Below are positions 18,701 to 47,385 of a stretch of DNA of 64,000 nt, in pieces. The stretch lies in the NCBI GenBank assembly GCA_027492035.1, contig JAOZFT010000015.1, positions 9,043 through 73,042 on the forward strand, written 5' to 3'. Source of the DNA: Thermoproteota archaeon (lineage in GTDB: Archaea; Korarchaeota; JAOZGF01; JAOZFZ01). The translations under genes were made by a program, and so were the position numbers. Numbering within the stretch: position 1 is the first letter of the stretch; every line of letters begins with the position of its first letter. The notes under the pieces are model-generated. The model saw nothing but the letters and a program-made list of their open reading frames with translations. It made no database searches and was not told the DNA's origin.

Positions 18701-20167
18701 GTGGTTTCGGAATTGCGAGAAGGAGTTAAAGGGGGGCAATTAAGGATTTTAAGTAACGAAGATTTGCGGCAAATTTATGTAGCAACCCTTCATCTACTTG
18801 AAAAGCAAGGTGTAAAGGTGGAAAATGAAAAAGCCTTAAACATACTGGCTAAATCTGGCGCCATGGTGGATAAAAGGAGGAAAATTGCTAAAATTCCAGG
18901 CTACATGGTTGAGGAAGCAATTAAAAAGGCACCGAAAAGTATAAGGCTTTGCGGCAGAAACAGAAACCAAGATTTTATTCTTGAAGGAAAAAGAGCTTAC
19001 TTTGGAAGTGGGGTGGGGACCACCCATATTTACGACCTTTATACTGGGGAATACAGAAAAACAAGGAAGAGAGACGTGGAGGACGCATTCAAGCTTTCAG
19101 ATGCTCTTCCAAATATTGATCATGCCTGGGGGTTGTTCAGTTGTACAGACGTACCTTCCAGCGTTGTTGGGCTCCATGAGCTTGAAGCAGGTTTAACAAA
19201 CACCACTAAACACATTTGCATCTACACTTGGCATGGCAAACCCCAAATAAATAAACAAATTGAAATGGCTAAGTTAGTAGCTGGAGGTGAAGAAGAACTC
19301 AGGAAAAGGCCTCTTGTCACCCTCTACAATGAGCCCCATTCACCTCTAACCTACGGAAAAGATTATTTAGATTCCTTAATGGAGTGGGCTAAAGCTGGGT
19401 TGCCTCAAATTTGGTACCCAGCCCCTATGTCAGGGGCTACTTCACCTGTAACAATGGCTGGGACACTGGTTCAAGGCTGGGCTGAGTCATTAGGAGGATT
19501 GGTGATAGCTGAACTCATTAACCCAGGAACCCCTTTCATTGTAGGTACAGGTACTTTCCTCATGGATATGAAGACTTCCTCTATAGTTTATGCTTCAGCT
19601 GAATGTATGCTTTTAGCCGTTGCAATAGCCCAGATTGCCCATTATCTAGATATCCCTCTATTTGGATTGGCAGGAGCCTCAGATTCGCAAGTATTGGACG
19701 GGCAGGCATTAGCAGAATCAGCTATGTATCTTGCTATTTCAGCTTTAGCAGGTCAAAACCTTATTCACGACTTAGGGTACCTAGCTTCAGGTTTAACGGG
19801 GAGTTTAGAACTTTTAACAATTTGTGATGAAATAGTGGCGATGGTTAAAAGGATAGCTAAAGGAATAAAAGTTAATGATGAAACATTAGCTTTGGGCGTA
19901 ATAGAGAAAGTAGGTTTTGGAGGGAATTACTTAAAGGAGAAACATACAAGGAAACATTTCTGGACTGAACACTTAGTTCCAGATTTAATGAATAGAGACT
20001 TTCACTCTGGATGGGTGAAAAAGGGAGGCAAAACTTTGGAGGAGAGGGCTAGAGAAAAAACAAAGAAATTACTTAAAGAACATGAGGTTGAGCCTTTAGA
20101 TAAAGAAGTAAAAAAGAAAATTGAAGAAATAATTAAGGAAACGACGAAAGAAACAACGAAAATATGA
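18701..20167 (+). CDS. MttB-superfamily methyltransferase (non-pyrrolysine trimethylamine-methyltransferase homolog; quaternary-amine:corrinoid methyltransferase candidate), paralog 1
   Basis: 488 aa uninterrupted ORF. Conserved MttB-family blocks include KIPGYMVEEAIKKAPK, AGGEEELRKRP, PLTYGKDY, GATSPVTMAGTLVQ and LAVEAI-like regions. No in-frame TAG. A TTG at 18713 giving MREGVKGGQLRIL matches the paralog N-termini better than the listed GTG start. Confidence 0.85.
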   Translation: MVSELREGVKGGQLRILSNEDLRQIYVATLHLLEKQGVKVENEKALNILAKSGAMVDKRRKIAKIPGYMVEEAIKKAPKSIRLCGRNRNQDFILEGKRAYFGSGVGTTHIYDLYTGEYRKTRKRDVEDAFKLSDALPNIDHAWGLFSCTDVPSSVVGLHELEAGLTNTTKHICIYTWHGKPQINKQIEMAKLVAGGEEELRKRPLVTLYNEPHSPLTYGKDYLDSLMEWAKAGLPQIWYPAPMSGATSPVTMAGTLVQGWAESLGGLVIAELINPGTPFIVGTGTFLMDMKTSSIVYASAECMLLAVAIAQIAHYLDIPLFGLAGASDSQVLDGQALAESAMYLAISALAGQNLIHDLGYLASGLTGSLELLTICDEIVAMVKRIAKGIKVNDETLALGVIEKVGFGGNYLKEKHTRKHFWTEHLVPDLMNRDFHSGWVKKGGKTLEERAREKTKKLLKEHEVEPLDKEVKKKIEEIIKETTKETTKI

Positions 20168-20184
20168 GTTTTGGAGGTGTTTAA

Positions 20185-21189
20185 ATGAAGTTTTCTCATT
20201 TTATCACATGTGTAGATTCCCACACAGCAGGTGAACCAACAAGAATAGTTACTTCAGGCGTACCTAAATTAAGAGGTAAAACTGTAGCTGAAAAAAGGGA
20301 TTATTTCAAGGAAAATCTCGACTATTTACGAACCTTTCTCATGCATGAACCACGAGGCCATAACGACATGTTCGGGGCTGTAGTTGTTGAACCTTCTGAC
20401 GAAAAGGCAGATTTAGGAATAATTTTTATTGACTGCGGGGGATACCTTGACGGCTGCGGCCACGGCACAATAGGTGTAGCTACGGTAGCTGTTAAAACAG
20501 GATTAATTGAAGCAAGAGAACCTGAAACAAAAATAACCATAGAAACCCCTTCAGGCCTTGTTGAAACAATATGTGAAATTAAGGATGGCCACGTTGAGGA
20601 AGTCAAGTTAAGGAATGTACCCTCATTCCTTTATGATACTAAGGAAGTGGATGTGCCTGGTTTCGGTAAAGTAGAGATTGACATAGCTTTTGGAGGAAAC
20701 TTTTTCGCTATAGTTGACGTGAAACAAGTTAAACTTAAAATAAACCCCAAAAACTCCTTGAAACTGATAGATGCAGGGCTAAAAATAAGAGATGCAATTA
20801 ATAAACAAGTGGAAGTTATACACCCAATGAAGAAATACATAAACAAAGTAAATTTGGTGGAGTTTTATGACGACCCGGATATCCCTGAAGCCCACTGCAA
20901 AAACGTCGTTGTTTTCGGTAATGGTCAAATAGATAGGTCCCCTTGCGGCACAGGCACAAGTGCAAAAATTGCAACCCTGTATGCGAAGGGGAAATTAAAA
21001 CTTGGAGAAGAGTTCATCCATGAAAGCATATTGAAAACTGTTTTCCGTGGAAAAGCTTTGAAAGAAACAAAAATAGGGAAATTTAAGGGGATCATCCCGG
21101 AAATAAAGGGTAAAGCATACATCACTGGCTTCAATCAATTAGTGATGGACCCAAAAGACCCTTTGAAACATGGGTTCCAATTAAAATGA
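20185..21189 (+). CDS. Proline racemase / 4-hydroxyproline epimerase family enzyme (both catalytic Cys present)
   Basis: 334 aa; motifs DCGGYLDGCGHGTIG and DRSPCGTGTSAK match the two Cys-containing catalytic motifs of proline racemase family enzymes. Confidence 0.8.
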   Translation: MKFSHFITCVDSHTAGEPTRIVTSGVPKLRGKTVAEKRDYFKENLDYLRTFLMHEPRGHNDMFGAVVVEPSDEKADLGIIFIDCGGYLDGCGHGTIGVATVAVKTGLIEAREPETKITIETPSGLVETICEIKDGHVEEVKLRNVPSFLYDTKEVDVPGFGKVEIDIAFGGNFFAIVDVKQVKLKINPKNSLKLIDAGLKIRDAINKQVEVIHPMKKYINKVNLVEFYDDPDIPEAHCKNVVVFGNGQIDRSPCGTGTSAKIATLYAKGKLKLGEEFIHESILKTVFRGKALKETKIGKFKGIIPEIKGKAYITGFNQLVMDPKDPLKHGFQLK

Positions 21190-21323
21190 AAAAGGGTATC
21201 ACCAGGGAAAAATTTTTGAAAAAAGTTTAAAAAAATGCTGCTTCATTCCTTCCTAAAAATATCCTATAATTTTCTCACTCCCTATCTTTTAAGAAGGACC
21301 CTTTAAAGAGCGAGGCTTTTAAA

Positions 21324-22610
21324 GTGCCGAGATATGATGTAGTAGTGGTTGGGGCTGGAATTCTAGGTTTAACTTCAGCATATTACATAAAGAAGTGGAA
21401 CCCGGACAAATCCGTCTTAGTTATTGATAAGTTCGCTTCAGCTGGCCAAGGGAACACTGCAAAAAGTGAAGCTTCATTCAGAAACGTTTTCTCCTCCAAG
21501 ACAAATTTCTTTTTGGCTGACAGCTCTGTTGATTTTTATTTCCACCTCCAAAATGATCTAGGTTACAATCTTGGCTTGCATAAGATAGGATACTTATTTC
21601 TTTTAGGTGAAACAAGTTACAGAAAAGAAATAAATGTATTCAGAGAAGTTGAGAAGAAAGGGGTGGAAGTCGAGTACTTTGAAAAAGATGACTTGGAAAA
21701 AATGATTCCAGGCGTTGTTTTAGAATTCAGTAGCGAAGATGAGGAAGCTAAAAGACTTAACTTAGAAAACGTTGTGATGGGTGTTTTAGGTAAGAAATGC
21801 GGTTATTTAGACGCTGATTCGCTGGTGAAGTTTTACGAAGAAAGTTTTAAAAAAGAAGGAGGCCTTATTCAGTATAAAACATTGGTTACTGAATTAATTC
21901 TTGAACCCTTAGAAAAATACTGCATACCTGGTGAACCTTTTACGTGGCAAGAAGCAAAAATAATGGGAGTAAAAACAAATAGGGGGGAAATAAGGGCTGA
22001 CACTGTGGTAGTGGCAGCAGGTGCTTGGTCAAACATCCTCCTTGACCCTGTAGGAATAGATGCAAGGGTGAAACCTAAGAAAAGACAAATTTTTGTGTTG
22101 AAAGGGGAAAGCCTTGAGCCATTATTTAACATTAAAGGGTTCAACAAGGAGAGGGTTCTTCCATTTGTGGCTATGCCTACAGCAGAGATTTACCTCAGGC
22201 CATGTATAGAGGAGAAAACTTTCTGGGTTGGTTGCACAGATGAGTTGGGGAGGAAATTTGAGCTCGAAGAAGACCCTCAACCAGAAAAATACTTTTACAT
22301 TTACGGGATCAGGCTTGTACTGGAAAAGTACTTTCCCCATTTCAGGAACCTTAAACCGCTTAATGCATGGGCTGGTCAATACACACAAAACTCTTTAGAT
22401 GCAAACCCTTACATTTTTGAGGAGGCTGGTGTAATAACTGTTACAGGAGCAAGTGGAAGCGGAATACTTAAAGGAGATGCAATCGGCAGAGTAGCAGCTG
22501 CTTTATATATGGGTGAAGACTACGCCGAACTTTATGGCGGAAGGAAATTTAAAGTAAGTGACCTTGGAGTGGATGAAAGAAAGGCTGAAAAGGAAGAGTT
22601 AGTGCTCTAA
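21324..22610 (+). CDS. FAD-dependent oxidoreductase, DAO (D-amino-acid/sarcosine oxidase-like) family, paralog A
   Basis: VVVVGAGILGLTSAYYI dinucleotide-binding motif, 428 aa; clear paralog of 44622..45890. Confidence 0.75.
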   Translation: MPRYDVVVVGAGILGLTSAYYIKKWNPDKSVLVIDKFASAGQGNTAKSEASFRNVFSSKTNFFLADSSVDFYFHLQNDLGYNLGLHKIGYLFLLGETSYRKEINVFREVEKKGVEVEYFEKDDLEKMIPGVVLEFSSEDEEAKRLNLENVVMGVLGKKCGYLDADSLVKFYEESFKKEGGLIQYKTLVTELILEPLEKYCIPGEPFTWQEAKIMGVKTNRGEIRADTVVVAAGAWSNILLDPVGIDARVKPKKRQIFVLKGESLEPLFNIKGFNKERVLPFVAMPTAEIYLRPCIEEKTFWVGCTDELGRKFELEEDPQPEKYFYIYGIRLVLEKYFPHFRNLKPLNAWAGQYTQNSLDANPYIFEEAGVITVTGASGSGILKGDAIGRVAAALYMGEDYAELYGGRKFKVSDLGVDERKAEKEELVL

Positions 22611-22702
22611 TAAAAAAATTATTTATTTTCAAAAAGTTTGTTTACGAAGTTTTTTTGTAACCTACTCCTTTAAATTTTAACTTTTTAAGGAGTTAATTAG
22701 TT

Positions 22703-23992
22703 ATGAAAAAGACACTGATTAAAAATTTAGAGGGTGTACCCCAAACCAAACTTCTTTATTTTAAAGACCCTTACAAATTCAAGTTTAAGGCAGAAATTTT
22801 GAAAAAATGGGAAGTAAATGGGAAAATGTATATAGTACTGGACAAAACCTATTTCTATCCAGAAGGTGGAGGCCAGCCATCAGACAAAGGTTATGTCTCA
22901 GTTGAGGATAAAAAGTACTCGGTTGTGGATGTGCAGAAAATTAAGGGCGTCATTGTTCATGAGTGTGTCCCTTCAACTACTAAATCCTTAGAGGGAAAAG
23001 AGGCTTTAGGTGAGATTGATTCTAAAAGAAGAGTTTCTAATATGCGTTGCCACACAGCCTCACACATAGTGATGTCTGCTATCGAAAAAGTTAAGGGAAA
23101 GGCACAGTACGCAGGTTTTGGAATAGAGGAAGGTAAAGTTAGGTTAGATGTTCAAACTGAGAAAATAACACCCGAAGACTTAGAGGAAATAGAAAGGCGT
23201 TCAAACAAAGTTATTTACCAAGCCATACCTGTAAAAACATACTTTGTTTCAAGGAGTGAACTGGAAAAGATTCTGACCGGTCTCCACTGGGCAAAGGAAA
23301 TACCCCTAGAGGAAAAAGTGAGGATAGTAGAGATTGAGGGTTTCGACAAAAGTATCTGCAGCGGAACACATTGTTTAAACACTATTGAAATAGGGATGAT
23401 CAAAGTAATTAACAAGTTTAGGCTACAGAAGGGGGTTGAAAGGATAGAGTTCTTAGTTGGGGAGGAAGCAGTTAATGAAACCCTGGACTACATGAACAAA
23501 TTAAGTTCTTTAGCTAGGAAACTGAATATTTCAGCAGAAGAAATACCTAATGTCCTTATGAAGTTAAGGAATGAGAAAAAGAGAATGGAAAAAGAAATTG
23601 AAGAAATGAAGCAAGAGTTAACTGAATCAAAATTCAGAAACTTGATAAGTAAAAAAGAGCTGATAGGAACTGTGGAGGTAGTAACTGGGCTCTTAAGGGA
23701 AGCAAACGCCAAAACCCTGGGGAGACTGGTGAAAAAGGAGATAGAGGAAAACGAAAATTTATTCATTGCTGTGGGGGGATTAAGTGGAAAACCAGCATTA
23801 GTTGCTGGAGGTGGGTCTCAACTTATTAAGAAAGGATTAAACGTAAGTCAGGTAGTCAGTGAAGTATGTCAAACATTGGGTGGGAGAGGTGGAGGGTCGA
23901 AAAACATAGGTTTTGGTGGAGGTTTAACAAGTGAAAACATTGCGAAAGCCGTTGAAAAAGTGAAAGAAAGAATTGTGTCATTCATTAAATGA
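22703..23992 (+). CDS. alaX: AlaX-L type alanyl-tRNA editing protein (AlaRS editing domain plus C-terminal Gly-rich domain)
   Basis: HxxxH (HTASH) and CxxxH (CSGTHC) zinc-binding editing motifs of the Thr/Ala-tRNA synthetase second additional domain; C-terminal GGRGGGSKNIGFGGG as in the AlaRS C-terminal domain. Confidence 0.7.
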   Translation: MKKTLIKNLEGVPQTKLLYFKDPYKFKFKAEILKKWEVNGKMYIVLDKTYFYPEGGGQPSDKGYVSVEDKKYSVVDVQKIKGVIVHECVPSTTKSLEGKEALGEIDSKRRVSNMRCHTASHIVMSAIEKVKGKAQYAGFGIEEGKVRLDVQTEKITPEDLEEIERRSNKVIYQAIPVKTYFVSRSELEKILTGLHWAKEIPLEEKVRIVEIEGFDKSICSGTHCLNTIEIGMIKVINKFRLQKGVERIEFLVGEEAVNETLDYMNKLSSLARKLNISAEEIPNVLMKLRNEKKRMEKEIEEMKQELTESKFRNLISKKELIGTVEVVTGLLREANAKTLGRLVKKEIEENENLFIAVGGLSGKPALVAGGGSQLIKKGLNVSQVVSEVCQTLGGRGGGSKNIGFGGGLTSENIAKAVEKVKERIVSFIK

Positions 23993-24026: not shown

Positions 24027-25019
24027 TTAAAGGGGGAAGTGTTTGCCTACCCCCTCTTGCAGAGACTTGGTGTAAGCATGTTTTGCTGTAACGGCATCTT
24101 GAACAGCTAACCCTACAGATTTCCAAAGGGTCACTTCATCCCTTGAAACTCTACCCTTTTTTAAACCAGTAACTACCTCCCCTAGTTCTGCGTAGACATG
24201 GCCTTCAGTTATTGCCCCCTCTTTTATGGGAATTATTATGTCTCCAGATTCCGCTAACACTGCCTCTTTTGAATCAACAAAAACTTTTGATTTCTTAACA
24301 GTTTCCGTATCCAACTCTCTTGCGTCTTTCCCCATCCAACCAATTGAGTTAACATGTGTTCCAGGTTTAATCCATTCCCCCTTTAAAACAGGTTTAACCG
24401 AGGTTGTGGCCACTATTAAAACATCACTTGGTTCAACTGCTTTTTCTGCAGTTTCCACGCTTCTGCCTTCAATCCTAAACCTTTCATTAATTTTTTCAGC
24501 TAACTCTTCAGCTTTGTCTTTCACAACATCATAAACTAAAACTGTTTCTATTTCCCTTACTTCTTTCACAGCCCACACTTGGGTAAATGCTTGTTTTCCA
24601 GCCCCTATTACCCCCAAAACCTTAGAGTCTTTGCGAGATAAATACTTAGTTGCTAAACCAGTTGCAGCACCTGTTCTTAAAGCAGTTATGTAACTTCCAT
24701 CCATAAAAGCTAAAGGTTCACCTGTTTCCGGGTTGTTAAGCTGGATAGTTGCATATATTGTAGGTAACTTATGTTTAACAATGTTATCGGGGTATACTGA
24801 AACAATTTTGACAGCTAAAGAGTTAAGGGGTTCAACGTAAGCCGGCATGTAAAGCATTGTGCCTCTATATTTTTTAATATTTATTATCGGCCTTAATGGA
24901 ACTTCCGTTTCTCCCTTAACAAATGCTGAAAAGGCCTTCTCCATTAAATCAATAACTTCTTTCATATCCAGAACTTTCTTTAAGTCTTTTTCAGTTAAAA
25001 GTAAAACCAAATATTTCAC
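24027..25019 (-). CDS. Ornithine cyclodeaminase/mu-crystallin family protein (OCD, archaeal alanine dehydrogenase or pyrroline-2-carboxylate reductase-like)
   Basis: 330 aa; Rossmann motif VIGAGKQA and family-typical layout. Confidence 0.8.
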   Translation of the reverse strand: MKYLVLLLTEKDLKKVLDMKEVIDLMEKAFSAFVKGETEVPLRPIINIKKYRGTMLYMPAYVEPLNSLAVKIVSVYPDNIVKHKLPTIYATIQLNNPETGEPLAFMDGSYITALRTGAATGLATKYLSRKDSKVLGVIGAGKQAFTQVWAVKEVREIETVLVYDVVKDKAEELAEKINERFRIEGRSVETAEKAVEPSDVLIVATTSVKPVLKGEWIKPGTHVNSIGWMGKDARELDTETVKKSKVFVDSKEAVLAESGDIIIPIKEGAITEGHVYAELGEVVTGLKKGRVSRDEVTLWKSVGLAVQDAVTAKHAYTKSLQEGVGKHFPL

Positions 25020-27202: not shown

Positions 27203-27727
27203 TTACTCCTTTTTAATCTTGAAAATCGCTATTTCGTCGGTGGTTTGGATTTGTTCTAAACTCACACCCAAAGCTTCTTCTAAATACCCTTGTAGCAGTT
27301 CCTTTGGAAAGAAGGGGTATTGAACAATAATTTTTCCATTTTCAAGTTTAAAATGTCCCCATCCTATTTGCGACAGAATTTTAAAAGCTATTCCCCAGTT
27401 CTCTTTCTTTCTTGGGTCAACACCAAAATTGGCGAGACATGAATCAACCATTGTTTTACCCATTTCTCTTCCCCCTTTAACCAATTGTTTTTTGGAAAGA
27501 TTACTCAAGAGATTGTTTATGCTTCTTTGGTTTACAATTGCTCTTCTAAACCCCCTTATGAAAATTAAAGGTTCTTTCCATTCAAAAATTGAAAGCTCAA
27601 ACGCTTTCTTAAGGGCTTTAATAACTATTTCTCTCTTGCTTTTAGCAGTTCCTTTCTTGATTAACTCCTCCATGGTGCTGTAAATGTCTTCAGGCAAATT
27701 AATAGTTAAGACAGGCATGGAAGACAC
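27203..27727 (-). CDS. Ribbon-helix-helix (CopG/NikR-like) domain protein with uncharacterised C-terminal domain
   Basis: N-terminal TINLPEDIYSTMEELIKKGTAKSKREIVIKALKK resembles the RHH beta-alpha-alpha DNA-binding motif; remainder unassigned. Confidence 0.4.
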   Translation of the reverse strand: MSSMPVLTINLPEDIYSTMEELIKKGTAKSKREIVIKALKKAFELSIFEWKEPLIFIRGFRRAIVNQRSINNLLSNLSKKQLVKGGREMGKTMVDSCLANFGVDPRKKENWGIAFKILSQIGWGHFKLENGKIIVQYPFFPKELLQGYLEEALGVSLEQIQTTDEIAIFKIKKE

Positions 27728-28701: not shown

Positions 28702-29985
28702 TTAAAGTGTAGGGATAGTTATTGAACCATAGGGAACAACTAACACTTCAGCGTCTCTACCTTGTAGTTGAAAAGCCTTGTTTAACGCCTCCTCTACTGT
28801 ATCTTCTCTTTTGAAACCGAATACTGAAAGATCCTCATTTGAAAGGTTACCGGAAACAACAGACACGTTAACTTTCTCTCTTAAAAATGAAAGTTCATAA
28901 ACCATGCATCCTAACACACTTGAAAGCCTCCCCTCCTCAACTAAATTCAGGATATCTTCAGGTTTCAGGGAGAAAATCTCCTTTTCATGTTTAATAATGT
29001 GCTCGGAAACTCCTTCATAGCATGGTGAAACATAAATTAAGGAACCGTTATCCTTAATGATTGGTTCAACTGATGCAAGAGCTCTTGTACCTCCCTGTAG
29101 AAAACTTACGTCATGTTCTTTGAATCCGCTGCTGCACACAACAATATCTGCTTTTCCTGGAGATTTTATCCTTGCAAATTCATCAAGTTTCTTTACTCCT
29201 TCCCGATGAGCCTTTACTATGTCTCCAGAAACAACTTCCACTATTTTTTTCTTATGGTTCAGGACAGTGTTCACAACCATGTCCACGTTTGTTTTTGAAC
29301 CTGCTTCTTCTATATCTTCCCTGACTAAGTTCCCTTTCAATACCCCAAATAAACTTGACCTTTTAATTTTGGCTAAAACCTTTGTAAATAATGAATGATT
29401 TTTCTCTATTGTTTCTCGGCTTGAAACACCTGGCAGAACAGTTTTAGCTCCCCCTGAATAACCTGCAAGCATACATGGAGTTATATTACCTGTAATTATC
29501 TTTATTTCCGCTTCAGCAAAGTCCTTATTAACTTTTAAAGGAGTCAAGTTAGCTGTAACCCCTAAATAAACATTTGTTTCGCTATCCGGGTCATGATTAA
29601 ACACCTTTACCTTCCCAATAACTTCCTCTCCCACATTTCTCTTTATTAGCTCCATCGAATCAGGTCGATGGAGACCTGTAGCAATAATCACTTTCAGATT
29701 TTCATACTTAACTCCCCTACCGTGAAGTTCTTTTAGGAGCACCGATAAAATTTCTTTATTAGGTGTGGGCCTTGTACTATCTGTTACAGCTATGGCTACA
29801 TCCTTCCCCTTTAAATTTTGTGAAAAAAGTGAATTTTTGCCTACTGGGTTATTTAACGCCTTCTTCACTAATTCCTTCACTTTTACATCTTTAACTGTGT
29901 CCTTAGGTGTTAGAACCCCCTTAACATTTCCCCTATCTACAGTAAACTTTAAGAACGTTTCTCCATAGGGCACCTCCACTTCCAT
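28702..29985 (-). CDS. larA: LarA-like nickel-pincer-nucleotide-dependent racemase/epimerase (lactate racemase family, DUF2088)
   Basis: 427 aa; IAVTDSTRPTP, IIATGLHRP and CMLAGYSGGAKTVLPGV align with the LarA blocks IISSDHTRPVP, ILVATGFHRP and FFAGFSGGRKSVLPGI. Confidence 0.75.
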   Translation of the reverse strand: MEVEVPYGETFLKFTVDRGNVKGVLTPKDTVKDVKVKELVKKALNNPVGKNSLFSQNLKGKDVAIAVTDSTRPTPNKEILSVLLKELHGRGVKYENLKVIIATGLHRPDSMELIKRNVGEEVIGKVKVFNHDPDSETNVYLGVTANLTPLKVNKDFAEAEIKIITGNITPCMLAGYSGGAKTVLPGVSSRETIEKNHSLFTKVLAKIKRSSLFGVLKGNLVREDIEEAGSKTNVDMVVNTVLNHKKKIVEVVSGDIVKAHREGVKKLDEFARIKSPGKADIVVCSSGFKEHDVSFLQGGTRALASVEPIIKDNGSLIYVSPCYEGVSEHIIKHEKEIFSLKPEDILNLVEEGRLSSVLGCMVYELSFLREKVNVSVVSGNLSNEDLSVFGFKREDTVEEALNKAFQLQGRDAEVLVVPYGSITIPTL

Positions 29986-35358: not shown

Positions 35359-36744
35359 GTGACGCATTACAACCAGTTACTGCAGCAAGAAATAAGGAAA
35401 TATAGGGAGAAAACAAGGAAATCAAGGAATCTTAATAACTTAGCACGGAGTCTCCTCCCGGGAGGAGACACAAGAACCGTAACTTACTTTAAACCTTATC
35501 CTCTTTATGTGAGAGAGGGATCAGGATACTTGGTTTGTGATGTTGACGGTAACAAATACATTGATTTCCTTAACAACTACACTTCACTGGTGCACGGCCA
35601 CCGTCACCCTAAAATTGTTGAGGCAATCAATAACCAACTTACCCATTTACAAGCAGTTCATGCCCCCACAGAAAAACAAATCGAGCTTGCTAAATTGATT
35701 TGTGAAAGATTTCCTTCAGTTGAAATGGTTAGGTTTATGAATTCAGGTACTGAAGCTACAATGAACGCTATAAGACTTGCAAGAGCTTATACAGGGAAAA
35801 AGAAAATAATGAAAGCTGAGGGGGGTTACCATGGAACCCATGACTTTGCAATGATAAGTGTGCATCCTCCTTCGGAGAAGTATGGCTCTCTAAACAACCC
35901 TGAATCTGTTCCAGAGGATAAAGGGATACCTAAAGCTGTACTCAAAAACGTTATAGTCTTCCCCTTCAACAATTTCGAAGTCACTGAGAAATTAATAAAG
36001 AGAAACAAGGAAGAGTTGGCAGCTTTAATAGTTGAACCTATAATGGGAACAGCAGGCATAATACCACCTGTAAAAGATTATTTAAAATTTCTCAGAGAAA
36101 TAACAATTGACAATGACGTTTTATTGGTTTTCGATGAAGTAATTACTGCCAGACTAAGTAAGGGAGGTGCTCAGGAATATTTTAAGGTAGAACCTGACTT
36201 AACAGCCTCAGGGAAAATGTTCGGTGGCGGAACCCCTATTGGCTTAGTTGGAGGAAAGGAAGAAATTATGCAACTTTACTCCCCTGAGAGGAAAGAATTC
36301 TTATCTCAATCAGGAACTTTTAACGCAAACCCTGTAACCATGGCCGCAGGTGTTGCAACACTTAAACTGTTAACAACCCAAGCTATAAAGAAAATAAACT
36401 CTTTAGGAGGATTCTTAAAGAAAAGAATTTCCAACTTATTTAGTGAATTTAGTGTTCAAATTAAGGTTACAGGTGTAGGCTCCCTCTTAAATATTCATTT
36501 CACAAATAAAGAAGTTTTAGATTACAGGAGTTCCTTAACAGCTGACAAGGATCTCCACTTCCTACTTTACTTATCTTTACTCAACAGGGGAATCTGGATA
36601 GCCCCAAGATTAATGGCTAACATTTCCACTCCCATGTCTAACAGGGAAACTGAAAAATTCCTTAAAACTTTAGGGGAAGTCTTAGTTTCTATTAAACCTG
36701 CAATTGAAGAGAAAGCTCCCCACTTAATAAACAAAGAAATGTAG
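35359..36744 (+). CDS. Class III PLP-dependent aminotransferase/aminomutase (GSA-aminomutase/GABA-aminotransferase-like), paralog of 11767..13074
   Basis: 461 aa; LPGGDTR, DVDGNKYIDF, LLVFDEVITA, and TASGKMFGGG containing the PLP lysine; GTG start. Confidence 0.8.
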   Translation: MTHYNQLLQQEIRKYREKTRKSRNLNNLARSLLPGGDTRTVTYFKPYPLYVREGSGYLVCDVDGNKYIDFLNNYTSLVHGHRHPKIVEAINNQLTHLQAVHAPTEKQIELAKLICERFPSVEMVRFMNSGTEATMNAIRLARAYTGKKKIMKAEGGYHGTHDFAMISVHPPSEKYGSLNNPESVPEDKGIPKAVLKNVIVFPFNNFEVTEKLIKRNKEELAALIVEPIMGTAGIIPPVKDYLKFLREITIDNDVLLVFDEVITARLSKGGAQEYFKVEPDLTASGKMFGGGTPIGLVGGKEEIMQLYSPERKEFLSQSGTFNANPVTMAAGVATLKLLTTQAIKKINSLGGFLKKRISNLFSEFSVQIKVTGVGSLLNIHFTNKEVLDYRSSLTADKDLHFLLYLSLLNRGIWIAPRLMANISTPMSNRETEKFLKTLGEVLVSIKPAIEEKAPHLINKEM

Positions 36745-36817: not shown

Positions 36818-37720
36818 TTAGGATATTCTGTATCTGGGATGGCTTTTTGGAAGTTTAATCTTTTCCTCTATTAACAATTGGCCGAAGGAAGCATCTACCA
36901 AACTTATTGCTGGGAACATGTATTCTGCGTCTCTTAATGGGCCGTACAATATGAAATCAGCTCCTAAAGCTGTGGGAAGTATACATGAAGAAGCTGTAGA
37001 AGCTATTACTCCTTCTTGGCTTATTTTCTTCTTCAACCCTTTCCACTGACTTACTGCATTATGGGCTCCGCAGCCGGCTGGAACACCGAATTTATCCTTT
37101 ATTTCAAATAAAGCCTTTGTAGCCATTCCAAGAGTTGGTATGTCCAGTACTGTTGTGTCTACCAGAATGTTTTCTAATCCAAGTTCCTCAGCCTTCTTTA
37201 TTAATTCCCCAGCTACTTCAACTCTTCCTTTTGAGGAAATTATTGCTTTCATTCCGTAAGTTAGTAACACTGCACTTTTTAAACCAACCTCTTTCACTTT
37301 GTTTAAAACAACTTCTTTTGTTTCTGGAGTTATTGAGTTCAGAATTATTCTAGACAACAAACCTGTTTCGTTTGAATACTCTAACCCTTCAACCATTGTT
37401 TCATTACTTAATCCATCTAAAAGCAAAGGAACATCTGAATTGTTAGCTGTGAAATCTAAAAATTTTTTCATAGCCTCAGGAGTTGTCCCTACAACATCCA
37501 GCATTAAAGGTAAACCTGTTAAATCAGACATTTCCAAGGCTTTACTTAACTCTTCCCCGGCTTCTTCTTCATTAAACACTCCCTTGTCAGGGTCATTAAC
37601 TACCCTATGTCCTCTGTAAAAGATACTTCCTATTAACACTGTCGGATTCTCCCCAGGATTTCCCCCCAACTTGATGCCTCCTATTTCAACAATTTTTTGT
37701 TTAGCTTTAAATTTCCACAT
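36818..37720 (-). CDS. mtrH: MtrH-like methyl-corrinoid:tetrahydromethanopterin/tetrahydrofolate methyltransferase
   Basis: 300 aa; GGNPGENPTVLIGSIFYRGHRVV ... LPLMLDVVGTTPEA ... DVPLLLDG ... GADFILYGP match the MtrH family blocks (GGQPGEYPT.L.GTIFY ..., LYGPI). Confidence 0.75.
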   Translation of the reverse strand: MWKFKAKQKIVEIGGIKLGGNPGENPTVLIGSIFYRGHRVVNDPDKGVFNEEEAGEELSKALEMSDLTGLPLMLDVVGTTPEAMKKFLDFTANNSDVPLLLDGLSNETMVEGLEYSNETGLLSRIILNSITPETKEVVLNKVKEVGLKSAVLLTYGMKAIISSKGRVEVAGELIKKAEELGLENILVDTTVLDIPTLGMATKALFEIKDKFGVPAGCGAHNAVSQWKGLKKKISQEGVIASTASSCILPTALGADFILYGPLRDAEYMFPAISLVDASFGQLLIEEKIKLPKSHPRYRIS

Positions 37721-37860: not shown

Positions 37861-39318
37861 TTAGTGAACAACTTCTTTAGCTGCACTTTTGATCACTTTG
37901 TCTATTTCATCTACTACATCCTTGGGTAAAGGTGTAACTTCGTGTTCCTTCAATATTTTTCTGGCTTTCTCTCTAGCCTTCTTCGTCAAGTCTTTGCCTC
38001 CTTCACTTATCCACTTCCTCCAAGAGGATTTGCTTAATAGATCAGTTAGGTAATGTTCCTGTTTAAAAAGTTTCCTTGTGTGTTTAAGGCTTAAATAACT
38101 TCCTGCATGACCTGCTTCCTTTATAGCTTCAACTGCTAAAGTTTCTTCATTTACTTCAACTCCCTGCAACAATCTTTTAATCATCCCTATTAATTCATCA
38201 CAAATCACAATGAAATCAGCGCTGCACAGCAAACCTGAGTCCATGTAGCCTATATCATGGATAAGGTTTTGGCCACTTAAAGCAGCTGCTGCTATATAAA
38301 GCGCCGCTTCAGCAGCTGCTTGTGCATCAGTTAATTTAGAATCTGTACACCCTGTAGTTCCCCAAAGGGGAATATCGTAGTAGTGAGACATCTGGGCGAG
38401 CATGACAGCCATCAATAAAGTTGACGCTGTTGTATAAGAAGTTACAGCGTATTTCATATCTAGAACCAAAGGCACCCCACCGTAAATGAAGGGGGTACCT
38501 GGGTTTAACAATTGAATTATAACGTTTCCTCCCAAGGATTCGGCGCTTGTTTGAACCACTGAACCTGCAAGAGTGACAGGGGCAGTTGCCCCGCTTTGTG
38601 TGCAAGGGGCCCAAACAATTGGCAATCCCTTCTTAACCCATTCAAATAATGCCTCAATGTAATCCCTGCCGAAAATTAATGGGGATTGTGGTTCATCGTA
38701 TAAGGTAACTATTGGTTTCCTTCTCAGTTCTTCTTCACCCCCGGCTACGAGTTCAGCTATTTTTATTTGCAGTTTCGTTAACTCTGCACCATGGTAACTG
38801 TACATTACAAAATGTTTTTCGGTATTAAGCAGTACAGCTTTTTCTTCATATAACCCCATTAAGCCAGAAGGAGCGTCGCTAGCTGTACCTGAACCCATTG
38901 CAAAGTCAATATTTTCTAATGCATCCCCTAACCTAGTTAGTTCCTCCATGTCCTTGAATGTGCACCTTCTCCTTTCACCTGTTTCAAGGTCTAAAACATA
39001 GGTTTGACCGCTTCCTGTACCAAAATATGTCCTTAACCCTTCAAGAACAAAGTCGTATTTTGGGTTCCTACCGTATAACCTAATTGTTTTGGGGGCCTTT
39101 TTAATTGATTCTTCAACTAAGTACTGAGGTATCTTAGCGATTTTAGTTTTAAAATCAACGTCAGCTCCTGCATCCTTAAGGAGTTTTAAAGCCCCTTCAT
39201 GTTCAATTTTTATTCCGTGCTGTTCCAGAACTTTCAACACTGCCAAATGTATATCGTATATTTGGTCATTAGTTAAAATTTTGAGCTGCCCCCCCTTTAA
39301 TCCACCCCTCATTCTCAT
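37861..39318 (-). CDS. MttB-superfamily methyltransferase (non-pyrrolysine), paralog 2
   Basis: 485 aa uninterrupted ORF, about 50-60% identical over long blocks to paralogs 1 and 3; no in-frame TAG; stop overlaps the corrinoid gene start by 4 nt. Confidence 0.85.
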   Translation of the reverse strand: MRMRGGLKGGQLKILTNDQIYDIHLAVLKVLEQHGIKIEHEGALKLLKDAGADVDFKTKIAKIPQYLVEESIKKAPKTIRLYGRNPKYDFVLEGLRTYFGTGSGQTYVLDLETGERRRCTFKDMEELTRLGDALENIDFAMGSGTASDAPSGLMGLYEEKAVLLNTEKHFVMYSYHGAELTKLQIKIAELVAGGEEELRRKPIVTLYDEPQSPLIFGRDYIEALFEWVKKGLPIVWAPCTQSGATAPVTLAGSVVQTSAESLGGNVIIQLLNPGTPFIYGGVPLVLDMKYAVTSYTTASTLLMAVMLAQMSHYYDIPLWGTTGCTDSKLTDAQAAAEAALYIAAAALSGQNLIHDIGYMDSGLLCSADFIVICDELIGMIKRLLQGVEVNEETLAVEAIKEAGHAGSYLSLKHTRKLFKQEHYLTDLLSKSSWRKWISEGGKDLTKKAREKARKILKEHEVTPLPKDVVDEIDKVIKSAAKEVVH

Positions 39319-39971
39319 CCCTTCCCAATTAACCTTTTAGCTACTTCAACTGCTTCTGTAGCATCTGCTCCATGTCCATCAGCCCCTATTTCCTCAGCCC
39401 ATTCAGGACTTGTAGGGGCTCCTCCAACTATAACTTTGTACTTATCCCTTAACCCCCTCTTTTTAAGTTCCTCGATGAGTTTCTTCTGGACAGGCATTGT
39501 AGTGGTTAATAATGCAGAGGCACCTATTATGTCAGCACCGTTTTCTTCAGCTGCTTTAATGAAGTTTTCAGGAGGTTGGTCGTTGCCTATCTGAATCACC
39601 CTGAAACCTGCTGCCTGAAGCATTGAAGCAACTATCCTCTGCCCTATATCATGTATATCCCCCTCAACTGTACCTATCACAATTGTTCCTACGTATTCAG
39701 CTTTCTCCTTTGATTTCTCCAATGCAGGCCTCAAAACAGTCATAACACTGTTCATAACCTCAGCTGACCCAACTAAATCCATCAAAAATATTTCTCCCCT
39801 CCCAAACTTATCCCCTATCTCTTTCAATTTTTTTGATAATGCATTCACAAGTTCAACAGGGCTCATGCCACGTTTTTCAAGTAATTCCTTAGCTAACTCG
39901 TCAGCACCCTCCGGTTCAGCTTCATCAAGTCTCTTCAACAACTCGTTAAGCACATCTTCTTTAGTGGACAC
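39315..39971 (-). CDS. Corrinoid (B12-binding) protein, MttC/MtbC/MtgC-like
   Basis: 218 aa; B12-binding-N helical cap plus Rossmann B12-binding domain with the DxHxxG motif (GDIHDIGQRIV). Confidence 0.85.
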   Translation of the reverse strand: MSTKEDVLNELLKRLDEAEPEGADELAKELLEKRGMSPVELVNALSKKLKEIGDKFGRGEIFLMDLVGSAEVMNSVMTVLRPALEKSKEKAEYVGTIVIGTVEGDIHDIGQRIVASMLQAAGFRVIQIGNDQPPENFIKAAEENGADIIGASALLTTTMPVQKKLIEELKKRGLRDKYKVIVGGAPTSPEWAEEIGADGHGADATEAVEVAKRLIGKG

Positions 39972-42284: not shown

Positions 42285-42306
42285 CTCCCTAAATTTCTTG
42301 AATACC

Positions 42307-43317: not shown

Positions 43318-43332
43318 CCCTTTCCACCTTTC

Positions 43333-44502
43333 TCAAACCTTGAAAACAGTAACTGCTGCTGTTCCACCTGACCCCCCCACGTTATGAGTTAAGCCTATTT
43401 CAGCGTCTTTAACCTGTCTAGCTGGCTTCTGAACAGTTTTTCGGAGTTGGTTAAATATTTCATAAACTTGGCCTGTTCCAGTTGCCCCAATAGGATGTCC
43501 TTTAGCCTTCAATCCTCCACTTAGATTGACAGGTATTTCTCCTTCCATTGAAGATAAGCCCTCTTCAATAAATTTTCCTCCTTCCCCCCTTTCACAGAAC
43601 CCAAGATCTTCATATGCAATTATTTCAGCTATTGTAAAACAGTCATGGACTTCAGCTACATCTACATCTTTGGGTTTGATTCCTGCTTTTTTGTATGCCT
43701 CTCTAGCAGCCAGTACTGCCGCTTTTAAAGAAGTTATTGTCTCTCTATCATGTAGGGCGAGGTAATCTGTACCTGTACCGAACCCAGCCACGTAAACAGG
43801 TGAATCAGTGAATTTTTTGGCTATTTCGGCTTTACACAGCAGGACTGCTGATGCTCCATCGGTAGTGGGGCAACAGTCGAAAAGATTTAATGGATAAGCT
43901 ACCATTGGAGAATTCATTGCTTTTTCTAGGGTTATTTTATTCTGGAACTGAGCTTTTGGGTTAAGAAATGCATTTTTATGGTTTTTCACAGCCACCATAG
44001 ACAGTTGCTCTCTGGTTGTGCCGTAGTCATGCATGTGACGGTTAGCCATTATTGCATAAAGCCCTGCAAAAGTCATACCTGCAAGTCTTTCGTACTCTGT
44101 ATCCCCAGAAACTCCAAGCCAATACTTAGCCTTAAGAGATGAAACATCCCGCATCTTCTCAACCCCTCCTGCAATTACAACGTCATACATACCGGACATT
44201 ATTGCTAAACATGCTTCTATGAAGGCAAAACCAGACGAGGAACATGCGTTCTCAATTCTTACTGCATGAACCCCTGGTAAACCTACATATTCAGCCATTA
44301 AAGCGGAAAGGTTGCCAAGCTGGAAACCTCCACTACCTAAACTACCAATGTAAACAGCATTTATTTCTCTAGGTTCTAACCCGTTATCTACACTGTTTAT
44401 TAATTCTATATAAGCATCTAAAAAAAGCTCTTTCACACTTTTATCGACTGATTCACCATATTTGCTTTGACCAGCTCCAACAACAGCTACTTTACTCTCC
44501 AT
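43333..44502 (-). CDS. Acetyl-CoA C-acetyltransferase (thiolase), archaeal type
   Basis: 389 aa; VAVVGAGQSKYGE N-terminus, active-site Cys region NACSSSGFA, C-terminal GHPIGATG and NVGGSGG motifs. Confidence 0.85.
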   Translation of the reverse strand: MESKVAVVGAGQSKYGESVDKSVKELFLDAYIELINSVDNGLEPREINAVYIGSLGSGGFQLGNLSALMAEYVGLPGVHAVRIENACSSSGFAFIEACLAIMSGMYDVVIAGGVEKMRDVSSLKAKYWLGVSGDTEYERLAGMTFAGLYAIMANRHMHDYGTTREQLSMVAVKNHKNAFLNPKAQFQNKITLEKAMNSPMVAYPLNLFDCCPTTDGASAVLLCKAEIAKKFTDSPVYVAGFGTGTDYLALHDRETITSLKAAVLAAREAYKKAGIKPKDVDVAEVHDCFTIAEIIAYEDLGFCERGEGGKFIEEGLSSMEGEIPVNLSGGLKAKGHPIGATGTGQVYEIFNQLRKTVQKPARQVKDAEIGLTHNVGGSGGTAAVTVFKV

Positions 44503-44621
44503 ACTGCTCCCTTACCCTTACTCCTTCTGTTTCTTAATTAAAAAATTAAAGATAATCATTTATATATTGAAATAATTATTTAAAATTTTTTGACAGCCTG
44601 AACTTTCCGGATGTGTAAAAT

Positions 44622-45890
44622 ATGAATTACGACGCCGTAGTGGTTGGGGCAGGTGTCCTCGGTTTATCTACAGCTTACCACATCAAATTAGAAAATCCAG
44701 CTGAAAAAGTTTTGTTAATTGATAAGAACCCTGGGCCTGGACAAGGAAATTCAGGTAAATCAGCTGAATGTTTCCGAAACATTTTCTACTCTGAAATTAA
44801 TACTTTGTTAGCAGATACATCTATTGATTTCTTTTTCCATGTTCAGTATGAAAAGGGGTTTGACTTGGGTATACGCAAGGTGGGTTATCTTTTCCTGACA
44901 GCTGAAGAGGAACTGAAGCTTTTCAAAAAGGAGCACATAAAGAAAGGCCAGGTTAAGGTTTATGAAAGAGAAGACCTCAAGAAACTTCTTAAATTAAACC
45001 TAAACGTTGAAAAAGATAAAGAAGCCCAAATGCTTAATCTTAAAAACATCCAGAAAGGGTTTCAAATAATCAAAGCAGGTTACTTAAGTGTAAGCAAATT
45101 AATTGAGTTCTATGAATCAGAATTCAAGAGACTTGGAGGTGAAACACTTTACCGTACAAAAGTTAAAAAGTTGCTTATGAAACCTAAAGAAGAACTCAAT
45201 ATCATAGGTGAACCCCACATTTGGCAGGATGCAGAAGTAGTTGGTGTTGAAACTGAAAAAGGGAAAATTTACGCAAAAAAGACAATAGTAGCTACTGGTG
45301 CTTGGAGCAACACTTTACTTCACCCAGTAGGTCTAGAAACATATATGAACCCTAAGAAAAGGCAACTTTTTGTTTTGAAAGCTAAAACAAAAGAATTAAA
45401 AGATTTACTTTACTCGAAAGGGTTCAATAAAGAAGGAATACTTCCTTTCACCATTTTACCAAAACCTCTAATTTGGATGAGGGCAACAATGGAGGAGAAC
45501 ACCTTCTGGATAGGGTGTGCAGATGAAATAGGTAGAAGTTTCAAACTTGAAGACGACCCTAAACCGGAAAAATACTTCTATATTTACGGAATAAGGCCTG
45601 TGCTTGAAAAATACTTTCCCCAATTCACAAACCAGGAACCTTTAAACATGTGGGCTGGTCAGTACGCAGTGAATTCCTATGACGGATGCCCAATAGTGTA
45701 TGAAGAGAGTGGTGTTATTTATTTAACAAGTGCAACTGATAGGGGGATACAGATTTCTCCTTCCCTGGGAAAAATTGCTTCAGCTGTTTACTTCGGTGAA
45801 GAGTATGCTGAACTGTTTGGGGGCAGGAAATTTAAAGTAAGTGATGTAGGTATCAGAAAAAGGAAAATTGAGTATGAGCTAGTGCTTTGA
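44622..45890 (+). CDS. FAD-dependent oxidoreductase, DAO family, paralog B
   Basis: 422 aa; VVVGAGVLGLSTAYHI motif; collinear similarity to 21324..22610 including the shared C-terminal GGRKFKVSD. Confidence 0.75.
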   Translation: MNYDAVVVGAGVLGLSTAYHIKLENPAEKVLLIDKNPGPGQGNSGKSAECFRNIFYSEINTLLADTSIDFFFHVQYEKGFDLGIRKVGYLFLTAEEELKLFKKEHIKKGQVKVYEREDLKKLLKLNLNVEKDKEAQMLNLKNIQKGFQIIKAGYLSVSKLIEFYESEFKRLGGETLYRTKVKKLLMKPKEELNIIGEPHIWQDAEVVGVETEKGKIYAKKTIVATGAWSNTLLHPVGLETYMNPKKRQLFVLKAKTKELKDLLYSKGFNKEGILPFTILPKPLIWMRATMEENTFWIGCADEIGRSFKLEDDPKPEKYFYIYGIRPVLEKYFPQFTNQEPLNMWAGQYAVNSYDGCPIVYEESGVIYLTSATDRGIQISPSLGKIASAVYFGEEYAELFGGRKFKVSDVGIRKRKIEYELVL

Positions 45891-45918
45891 AACCCTTTCC
45901 TCATGAATCAGTAAAGTT

Positions 45919-47385
45919 TTAGTTTTTGGATGTAACTTTGGCTATTTCTCTGGCCTGCTTTAGTATTTCTTCAACTCTTTCCCTTGTTTCAGCCGGTAAA
46001 GGTTCTATTTCATGTTCCTTCAATATTTTTAAGGCTTTCTCCCTTGTTCTTTTAACTATATCTTTAGCTCCAAGTTTCATCCACATACTGTATGAAAAAC
46101 TTCTATCCAACAATTCATTAATGAAATGTTCCTCCTTAAAGTATTTCCTTGTATGTTTAAGCTTTAAGAAGTTTCCAGCATGTCCAGCTTCCATTATTTC
46201 GTTTACAGCAAGTCTTTCCTCATCCACCTTTATTCCTTTCATGAAAAGCTTAGTTTCACCTATTACCTCATCCGCAAAAACCAGTATCTCATGGGAAGTT
46301 GTAATTGCTGAGTCAATATAGCCTATGTCATGAATGAGGTTTTGGCCTCCGAGAGCCGCAACCATTAAGTTCCTTGTTGCCTCAGCAAAAGCTTGTCCGT
46401 CAAGCACCCGTGAATCTGAACATCCACCAGTACCCCACATCGGGATTCTTAAATAATGACAAAGCTGAGCTTGTGCTGTTCCAAGCATCAAATCCTCAAT
46501 TGCTCCATAAGAGGTAACTGTCGTCCTCATATCCATAACCATAGGTACAAAACCGAAAATGAAAGGGGTGCCAGGGTTTATAAGTTGAGCTAAAACGTTT
46601 CCACCTATGGATTCCGCCATTCCTTGAACAATTGAACCAGCTAAAGTTACAGGGGCTGTTGCACCAGTGATTGGGCAAGGGGCGAAAACAACAGGTAACC
46701 CCCTCTTAACCCATTCAATCAAAGCTTCTACATAGATTTCGCCGTAAACTAACGGGGATTGCGGTTCATCATACATGGAAACTATGGCTCTCCTTTTTAA
46801 CTCCTCTTCACCACCCGCCACTTCTTCAGCTATTTTAATCATTAGTTTAGTCAATTCTGCACCATGGTAAGCGAAAACAATTGAGTGCTTCACTGTATTG
46901 GACATTATTGCATATTGTTCATAGAGGCCTTGAACCTCTGTCGGAACATCAAAAGGAGTAGCTAAACCCATTGCGTAATCAATGTTCGGTAACGCATCTG
47001 ATAATTTAGCTGTGTTCGCTACGTCTTGAAGGTTGGTTTTTCTTCTTTCACCTGTTTCAAGGTCTATTATATGGGTTGTTCCACTGCTTGTGCCAAAAAA
47101 AACTTTCCTGCCTTCAATAATAAAATCTTGCTCTTTACTTCTTCCACAAAGCCTAACTCTCCTCGGTGCCTTCCTTAATGACTCCTTAACCAAATACTCT
47201 GGGAATTTAACTACTTTACTTTTATAATCAACTATTGCACCTGCATCTTCAAGTAGTTTAAGAGCTTTGTCATGCTCTATTTTAACTCCATGCATTTCTA
47301 AAACGTTAAGGATAGCGTAATAAATGTCTTCTATTTGTTCCTTGGATAAAATTTTCAACTGTCCCCCCTTTAATCCTTTCCTCAT
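45919..47385 (-). CDS. MttB-superfamily methyltransferase (non-pyrrolysine), paralog 3
   Basis: 488 aa uninterrupted ORF; conserved blocks shared with paralogs 1 and 2 (GLKGGQLKILS, AGGEEELKRR, GATAPVTLAGS, LAVNEI). Confidence 0.85.
   Translation of the reverse strand: MRKGLKGGQLKILSKEQIEDIYYAILNVLEMHGVKIEHDKALKLLEDAGAIVDYKSKVVKFPEYLVKESLRKAPRRVRLCGRSKEQDFIIEGRKVFFGTSSGTTHIIDLETGERRKTNLQDVANTAKLSDALPNIDYAMGLATPFDVPTEVQGLYEQYAIMSNTVKHSIVFAYHGAELTKLMIKIAEEVAGGEEELKRRAIVSMYDEPQSPLVYGEIYVEALIEWVKRGLPVVFAPCPITGATAPVTLAGSIVQGMAESIGGNVLAQLINPGTPFIFGFVPMVMDMRTTVTSYGAIEDLMLGTAQAQLCHYLRIPMWGTGGCSDSRVLDGQAFAEATRNLMVAALGGQNLIHDIGYIDSAITTSHEILVFADEVIGETKLFMKGIKVDEERLAVNEIMEAGHAGNFLKLKHTRKYFKEEHFINELLDRSFSYSMWMKLGAKDIVKRTREKALKILKEHEIEPLPAETRERVEEILKQAREIAKVTSKN

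Follow-up and report, generated by a model that had tools for sequence, protein, structure and literature searches.

Here, we analyzed a 64,000-nucleotide (nt) stretch of contig JAOZFT010000015.1 from the korarchaeal assembly GCA_027492035.1 (positions 9,043 to 73,042; hereafter the window), which contains three paralogous genes of the MttB superfamily of corrinoid-dependent methyltransferases, designated P1, P2, and P3. The best explanation of the locus as a whole, which we consider likely, is that P1-P3 are anciently diverged paralogs in an archaeal-dominated and biochemically uncharacterized clade of MttB proteins that do not use pyrrolysine (Pyl), and that they serve as substrate-specific methyltransferases (MT1s) in corrinoid-protein/MtrH modules acting on N-methylated amino acids or betaines. 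Few "methylotrophy" markers are used more often in genome reconstructions of uncultured archaea than non-Pyl MttB homologs, and, to our knowledge, only a handful of these have known substrates, all of them being bacterial or methanogen enzymes with a conserved Arg. This Arg is absent from P1-P3 and from most of their approximately 200 nearest relatives, several of these genes being located beside proline-dehydrogenase-like flavoenzymes, which provides a testable substrate hypothesis. It also calls for caution, in that such genes should not be annotated as glycine-betaine or "trimethylamine" methyltransferases.

Three MttB-family genes in the window

An earlier note on this DNA, made from the sequence alone, had described three uninterrupted open reading frames (ORFs) of the MttB superfamily, and all of them are present where it placed them, with no internal stop codon and no in-frame TAG. 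Each product matches the family profile PF06253 (MTTB, COG5598) from profile position 30 to approximately 495 of 500. A six-frame scan of the 64-kb window with a hidden Markov model built from 52 MttB family members detected exactly three MttB-family frames and no TAG-split MttB fragments. The complete tally of methyltransferase-related ORFs in the window is three MttB proteins, two corrinoid proteins, one MtrH, and one MtmB-like protein. The three paralogs resemble each other over their full length, as had been claimed, with identities of 52% (P1-P2), 51% (P1-P3), and 57% (P2-P3). The shared motifs quoted in the note are present in general, except that P1 reads GVKGGQLRIL, with Val in place of Leu, and that P3 reads AGGEEELKRRA, without the final Pro.

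Sequence identity to the Pyl-containing MttB of Methanosarcina barkeri and to MtgB of Desulfitobacterium hafniense is alike (30-33%, about 32%). The only NCBIfam model matched by P1-P3 is TIGR02369, the equivalog model of Pyl-MttB, whose curated cutoff is 525 bits. Their scores (431-480 bits) fall below this cutoff, as does that of the D. hafniense MtgB control (400 bits), whereas the M. barkeri MttB control reaches 724 bits. Because these scores resemble that of MtgB and not that of a real MttB, P1-P3 behave like non-Pyl members of the superfamily, which is the membership that had been proposed for them.

The expected corrinoid-methyltransferase fold, a triosephosphate isomerase (TIM) barrel, is recovered by structure prediction. 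An AlphaFold2 model, built for P1 only from a 52-sequence alignment, has a predicted local distance difference test (pLDDT) score of 95.8 and a predicted template modeling (TM) score of 0.94, and a Foldseek comparison of this model with 9yce (MtgB), 7xcl (MttB), and 2qne gave TM scores of 0.92-0.93 (E 1e-45), which answers the lack of fold that the note had named as a refuting outcome. P2 and P3 match the same solved MttB and MtgB chains by phmmer with 216-246 bits.

The pyrrolysine-aligned site and the substrate pocket

In the 7xcl chain of M. barkeri MttB, Pyl334 is printed as X (GSXSDAK). Whether aligned by phmmer to this chain and to MtgB or by MAFFT among 205 sequences, P1, P2, and P3 have Ala, Cys, and Cys, respectively, at this site, in agreement with the earlier assignment; the equivalent residue in MtgB is Leu317. 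These residues are Ala326 of P1 (codon GCC, 19676-19678), Cys324 of P2 (TGT, 38347-38349), and Cys322 of P3 (TGT, 46420-46422), and the codons are 2 to 3 substitutions away from TAG. Proteins identical to those of the window were found in several separately deposited assemblies (GCA_027491475, GCA_027491625, and GCA_027491775), and since identical proteins recur in independent assemblies, a UAG codon masked by sequencing error can be excluded. A masked-TAG Pyl-MttB, which had been named as the outcome that would undo the non-Pyl reading, is thus ruled out by the sense codons, the identity across assemblies, and the TIGR02369 controls. Within the 64-kb window, no pylTSBCD genes were found, and scans for tRNA genes and Rfam families detected nothing. 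Stop codons in the window are TAA (34), TGA (15), and TAG (4); although TAG is the rarest (4/53), the sample is too small to judge amber avoidance.

Across the 205 relatives, the Pyl-aligned column is occupied by Cys in 125 cases, followed by Val (19), Ala (16), Ile (13), Thr (9), and Gly (9). The residue varies by clade; Cys recurs on deeply diverged branches, and Ala is fixed only in the small orthologue group of P1, whose members (66-70% identity) all carry it. The idea that Ala versus Cys may mark substrate classes therefore appears weak: because Cys is carried by so many relatives over deep branches, it is the default residue and not a substrate marker. The fact that clades exchange Cys freely for Ala, Val, Ile, Thr, or Gly also speaks against its having a catalytic or metal-binding role.

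A 2026 study of MtgB identified Y97 and F356 as cation-pi contacts and R312 and H348 as carboxylate contacts (PMC13080624). According to this study, R312, which contacts the acidic group of the substrate, is kept in all characterized non-Pyl members (MtgB, MtcB, MtpB, MthB, and MtyB), and the Y97/F356 pair is a peculiarity of MtgB that the other characterized members do not conserve (PMC13080624). Arg is absent from the R312 site of all three paralogs, which have Phe (P1), Trp (P2), and Trp (P3). The same column in the 205 relatives contains Phe (91), Trp (68), Tyr (21), and Arg (19), being aromatic in 180 of them, and M. barkeri MttB has Tyr there. The Y97 site is Val, Ser, and Ser and the F356 site is Gly, Gly, and Ala in P1, P2, and P3, respectively. 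The His of the NLIHD motif in P1-P3 aligns with MtgB H348 by phmmer, and MAFFT moves this alignment by one column. Tyr364 of MttB, which is invariant (100%) among Pyl-MttB proteins, is required to activate Pyl (PMC9842639); it aligns with the same NLIHD His in P1, P2, and P3, and 180 of the 205 relatives likewise have His there, with Asp coming next in 175 of the 205.

Relatives and host

Hundreds of database relatives were found for P1-P3. A neighbor-joining (NJ) tree, in which the comparison chains were only MtgB, M. barkeri MttB, and S. meliloti 4yyc, places P1-P3 in one 64-member subclade, apart from MtgB, which groups with an Arg-containing minority. The nearest relatives of each paralog in this tree belong to other organisms, and P1-P3 are old paralogs or separate acquisitions and not recent duplicates. 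The best non-self relative of P2 is 60% identical, and P3 has one close orthologue. Named relatives come from metagenome-assembled genomes (MAGs) of Bathyarchaeota, Methanomethylicia, Promethearchaeota, and Nitrososphaeria, with some from Bacillota and Desulfobacterota, and MttB-corrinoid-MttB triads are common among relatives.

The archaeal host presumed in the note is supported by the same or orthologous proteins in JAOZF*/JAOZG* MAGs, GTDB genus names from this batch, JAOZFL01 and siblings, being listed as Korarchaeota (PMC12787533); an orthologue of P1 is found in GCA_027491455 (JAOZFL). The guanine-cytosine content of the window is 37.5%, and the fraction of the residues Ile, Val, Tyr, Trp, Arg, Glu, and Leu (IVYWREL) is 0.428, the latter suggesting a thermophilic host.

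Gene neighborhoods of the three paralogs

The features discussed in this and the following sections are listed in Table 1. The context that tells most, overlooked in the note, is given by the genes for corrinoid proteins and MtrH, the non-Pyl MtmB homolog, and the genes of proline metabolism.

Table 1. Position and homology of MttB paralogs and associated genes in the window (aa, amino acids; FAD, flavin adenine dinucleotide; LIV, leucine-isoleucine-valine; ABC, ATP-binding cassette)
Feature	Position	Strand	Size and homology
LIV-type ABC transporter beside P1	13174-18559	both	Peripla_BP_6, BPD_transp_2 x2, ABC_tran x2; binding protein 13174-14574 (-), permeases 15098-16932 (+), ATPases 17041-18559 (-)
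MttB paralog 1 (P1)	18701-20167	+	488 aa, GTG start; PF06253 E 2e-96; TIGR02369 480 bits
Proline racemase family protein	20185-21189	+	PF05544 E 8e-128; NF010576 511 bits; 18 nt downstream of P1
DAO-family FAD flavoenzyme 1	21324-22610	+	428 aa; PF01266; L-proline-dehydrogenase-like or sarcosine-oxidase-like
Ornithine cyclodeaminase (OCD)/mu-crystallin family protein	24027-25019	-	PF02423 E 1e-83; NF006379 368 bits
MtrH-family methyl-corrinoid:pterin methyltransferase (MT2)	36818-37720	-	PF02007 E 1e-75; 140 nt downstream of P2
MttB paralog 2 (P2)	37861-39318	-	485 aa; PF06253 E 7e-98; TIGR02369 446 bits
Corrinoid protein 1	39315-39971	-	218 aa; PF02310 + PF02607; MtgC/MtbC-like NCBIfam matches
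DAO-family FAD flavoenzyme 2	44622-45890	+	422 aa; PF01266; convergent with P3, 28 nt apart
MttB paralog 3 (P3)	45919-47385	-	488 aa; PF06253 E 2e-90; TIGR02369 431 bits
DUF2284 protein	47559-48179	-	Cys-rich, 8 invariant Cys; between MtmB homolog and P3
AAA_5+VWA fusion protein	48191-50083	-	630 aa; between MtmB homolog and P3
Non-Pyl MtmB-family homolog	50139-51524	-	461 aa, uninterrupted; PF05369 E 2e-97
Corrinoid protein 2	51529-52194	-	221 aa; PF02310 + PF02607; TIGR02370 220 bits (cutoff 215)

In a tight operon, P2 lies between corrinoid protein 1, which comes first, and the MtrH homolog. The stop codon of corrinoid protein 1, whose DxHxxG motif is GDIHDIG, overlaps the start of P2 in a 4-nt ATGA. 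The MtrH homolog passes the cutoff of NF002142 (314 bits versus 287) and remains below that of the MtgA model (242 bits versus 550).

An island of genes for amino-acid and short-chain-acyl catabolism surrounds P2 (25222-44502). It includes an aldehyde:ferredoxin oxidoreductase, an indolepyruvate-type ferredoxin oxidoreductase, coenzyme A (CoA)-transferase subunits, an Ord-like 2,4-diaminopentanoate dehydrogenase (347 bits versus a cutoff of 400), an HpaB/4-hydroxybutyryl-CoA-dehydratase-family protein, and an archaeal DUF35/3-hydroxy-3-methylglutaryl-CoA synthase/thiolase trio. Gamma-butyrobetaine was considered as a substrate of P2 on account of the HpaB/AbfD-family, class III aminotransferase, and CoA-transferase neighbors, but is retained only as weak speculation, the aminotransferase being HemL-like by NCBIfam and not gamma-aminobutyrate-aminotransferase-like.

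P3 ends a five-gene same-strand cluster consisting of corrinoid protein 2, the MtmB homolog, the AAA_5+VWA fusion protein, the DUF2284 protein, and P3 itself, and this gene order is kept in two other assemblies (loci L004 and L005), as is the adjacency of flavoenzyme 2 and P3. Corrinoid protein 2 is 44% identical to corrinoid protein 1 and has GDIHELG as its DxHxxG motif. The MtmB homolog has Met (codon ATG, 50919-50921) at the site aligned to Pyl202 by phmmer to 1l2q; a comparison with 1.8 billion proteins gave 246 clusters at E<1e-30, the nearest 50%-cluster representative having 46% identity.

The AAA-VWA/DUF2284 pair, which also occurs at one further locus (L013), might, speculatively, replace the missing RamA-type corrinoid activator. 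The idea that DUF2284 generally accompanies or activates corrinoid methyltransferases was rejected, as no general linkage was observed in 80 metagenome loci, where its neighbors included MttB once, MtrH twice, AAA-VWA once, and a weak B12 domain approximately 7 times. Next to corrinoid protein 2, a 1.3-kb segment (52195-53540) lacks any long ORF; its sole content is a 64-aa winged-helix-like fragment (52854-53048), which may be what is left of a decayed gene.

P1 has no corrinoid-protein gene beside it. The proline racemase downstream of it scores 418 bits to PDB 7pb3 and retains both catalytic Cys residues in the motifs CGHG and SPCGTG. The best PDB match of flavoenzyme 1 is 3axb/3vqr (289 bits), named "putative oxidoreductase" in PDB; we take 3axb to be the dye-linked L-proline dehydrogenase of A. 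pernix. The OCD-family product is a candidate pyrroline-2-carboxylate reductase or cyclodeaminase. Archaeal proline gene clusters contain the same gene types as the surroundings of P1 (Watanabe et al., PMC4364671).

Flavoenzymes 1 and 2 share 51% identity, as do P1 and P3, which suggests that an MttB-flavoenzyme module may have been duplicated. A corrinoid-protein/MttB pair is located beside a DAO, Pyr_redox_2+Fer2_4, Fer4, and SO_alpha_A3 set in three unrelated relatives (L006/L007, L008, and L091), of which L091 is a locus of a Bathyarchaeota genome that also has glycine-cleavage genes. The composition of this four-gene set matches that of the alpha-beta-gamma-delta L-proline dehydrogenase (cited in PMC4364671).

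Three additional genes of the window, encoding an Amdase/EutA-like protein (11017-11739), a homolog of the LarA-like nickel-pincer racemase (28702-29985), and a HemL-like class III aminotransferase (35359-36744), recur near MttB in L091, L008, and L006/L007 (E 5e-48, 5e-95, and 2e-98).

Proposed mechanism and alternative explanations

Judging from homology, each paralog is a TIM-barrel MT1 enzyme, which most likely acts as a substrate-specific loader of a small corrinoid protein. It would bind an N-methyl substrate that is already cationic or activated in some other way and offer one methyl group to the corrinoid Co(I). The P2 module is complete, comprising corrinoid protein 1, P2, and the MtrH-type MT2, the last of which would move the methyl group from CH3-Co(III) to tetrahydromethanopterin (H4MPT) or tetrahydrofolate (H4F), from where it could enter one-carbon (C1) metabolism. 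P3 and the non-Pyl MtmB homolog may use corrinoid protein 2 in common, and P1, which does not have a corrinoid protein of its own, would have to borrow one. As to a sink for the methyl group, marine Korarchaeia are reported to encode MtrH and "several methyltransferases" in addition to the Wood-Ljungdahl pathway (PMC10667645, PMC10469681).

From the gene context, N-methylated amino acids or betaines emerge as the most likely substrate class. For P1, proline-betaine-type compounds appear to be favored, because the proline racemase, the proline-dehydrogenase-like flavoenzyme, the amino-acid ABC transporter, and the OCD-family gene adjoin it. P1-P3 would then be functional analogues of MtpB and MtgB, not orthologues, with a pocket that has Phe or Trp in place of Arg312 together with the His-Asp pair. 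The earlier statement that the archaeon uses several quaternary-amine-type substrates is an extrapolation and is not established, R312 being replaced by Phe/Trp/Trp and Y97 and F356 being replaced as well.

Several points weigh against this explanation. No member of the P1-P3 clade has been assayed; the R312-type Arg is missing, so that a carboxylated betaine would need another binding mode, and the MtgB aromatic pair Y97/F356 is lost. It is equally conceivable that the four-gene flavoenzyme set forms a sarcosine-oxidase-like or opine-oxidase-like complex, and no flavoenzyme is found near MttB in the relatives L009, L092, and L093, the association of the two being recurrent but not universal. 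Proline genes are absent near the P1 orthologue of another Korarchaeote (L002). In addition, Pfam scans detected no RamA/RACE-type activator among the 53 window proteins (it may lie elsewhere in the genome), and the window contains no Wood-Ljungdahl genes.

A broader proposal, which we offer as a tentative possibility, is that P1-P3 represent a large, mostly archaeal MttB clade characterized by an aromatic residue for Arg, His-Asp for Tyr364, and Cys by default, with a substrate range unlike that of the characterized members, coupled to L-proline dehydrogenase and feeding MtrH and the Wood-Ljungdahl pathway in thermophiles. Its candidate substrates may be stachydrine-like cyclic amino-acid betaines, or tertiary N-methyl amino acids that are activated by protonation and not by pyrrolysine.

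Alternatively, the Arg-less clade with Phe/Trp and His-Asp might act on a different class of substrates, namely non-carboxylated methylammonium compounds (choline or tetramethylammonium), tertiary N-methyl amines in their protonated form, or O- or S-methyl compounds, in which case the His-Asp pair, and Cys where it is present, would help to activate the leaving group. The strong conservation of the signature (aromatic in 180, His in 180, and Asp in 175 of the 205 relatives) along with the loss of the acidic-group Arg is in favor of this view, and so is the co-operonic position of P3 with a non-Pyl MtmB homolog, whose only characterized relative uses tetramethylammonium and choline (PMC13044021). 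However, amino-acid genes dominate the context, including the proline racemase (ProR), the proline-dehydrogenase-like flavoenzymes, the ABC transporter, and the glycine-cleavage genes of L091, and the ease with which Cys is exchanged for Ala, Val, Ile, Thr, or Gly speaks against its being catalytic or a metal ligand. We regard this explanation as unlikely.

It is quite unlikely that P1-P3 are ordinary orthologues of the enzymes for glycine betaine (MtgB), proline betaine (MtpB), carnitine (MtcB), or gamma-butyrobetaine (MtyB) with the same binding determinants. The superfamily and fold are in common, the MT1/corrinoid/MtrH-like MT2 layout is like that of mtgBCA, and His occupies the H348 position in the phmmer alignments; however, identity to MtgB (~30-33%) is no higher than that to Pyl-MttB, R312, Y97, and F356 are all replaced, and the NJ tree, which does not include MtpB, MtcB, or MtyB, puts MtgB with the Arg-containing minority. 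Finally, true Pyl-dependent trimethylamine methyltransferases with an error-masked UAG, or Pyl-free trimethylamine demethylation, could be argued from TIGR02369 being the only NCBIfam model matched, from the aromatic residue shared with M. barkeri MttB (Tyr) at the R312-aligned site, and from the rarity of TAG as a stop in the window (4/53), but the codons GCC, TGT, and TGT, the identical proteins in independent assemblies, the TIGR02369 scores far from the 724 bits of a real MttB and below the 525-bit cutoff, the replacement of Tyr364 (PMC9842639) by His, and the ordinary residues that fill the Pyl site in the 205 relatives make this exceedingly improbable.

Comparison with known systems

MtgB of D. 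hafniense (2QNE/9YCE) is similar to P1-P3 in superfamily, TIM-barrel fold (TM 0.92), absence of pyrrolysine, a small DxHxxG corrinoid protein combined with an MtrH/MtgA-like MT2, and, as aligned by phmmer though one column off by MAFFT, His348, but it shares only 30-33% identity with them, belongs to another NJ clade, and has Arg312, Tyr97, Phe356, and Leu317, all of which are replaced. MttB of M. barkeri (7XCL) belongs to the same family as P1-P3, has the same fold (TM 0.93), likewise carries an aromatic residue at the R312 site, and is similar in length and in the C-terminal dimerization helix region; P1-P3 differ from it in lacking UAG/Pyl334, in having His for Tyr364, and in their TIGR02369 scores (431-480 versus 724). 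MtpB of Eubacterium limosum, which acts on proline betaine, is a candidate functional analogue of P1 in view of the proline-gene neighbors of the latter; compared by the published residue only, MtpB keeps the Arg312 equivalent (PMC13080624), whereas P1 does not.

Clusters of mtrH, mttB, and mttC without Pyl have been reported in Culexarchaeia, Atabeyarchaeia/Freyarchaeia, Brockarchaeia, and other TACK and Asgard archaea, and were described as an uncharacterized methyltransferase group and interpreted as methylotrophy on quaternary amines or a "yet unknown methylated substrate" that feeds the Wood-Ljungdahl pathway (PMC9723716, PMC11291895). The window contains the same trio without pyrrolysine, and the locus adds to these already described archaeal clusters. 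It differs from them in having three paralogs in 30 kb of a probably thermophilic marine Korarchaeon, two of them beside proline-dehydrogenase-like flavoenzymes and one in an operon that also holds a non-Pyl MtmB homolog, and in the absence of the COG3894 activator near the window genes. Modestly new are the Arg-less signature in most relatives, the link to flavoenzymes of proline metabolism, and the operon shared by P3 and the non-Pyl MtmB homolog; for the window itself, such genes are what one would expect of a marine Korarchaeon that has C1 metabolism and come as no surprise.

The only characterized non-Pyl MtmB homolog is MtqB of Methanococcoides methylutens, which uses tetramethylammonium and choline and whose function, reported in 2026, was the first for this family (PMC13044021). 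The gene at 50139-51524 is likewise an uninterrupted member of the MtmB family with its own corrinoid protein. A lignin O-demethylase of Bathyarchaeia that is also called "MtgB" (mLife 2023) was dismissed as a relative of P1-P3, since it has approximately 300 aa and is unrelated to the MttB family.

Other ORFs of the window

No Pfam family at E<=0.001 matches four ORFs of 140-557 aa (27203-27727, 54095-55768, 55779-56201, and 57438-57878). The adjacent pair among them (54095-56201) comes after a DJ-1/PfpI gene.

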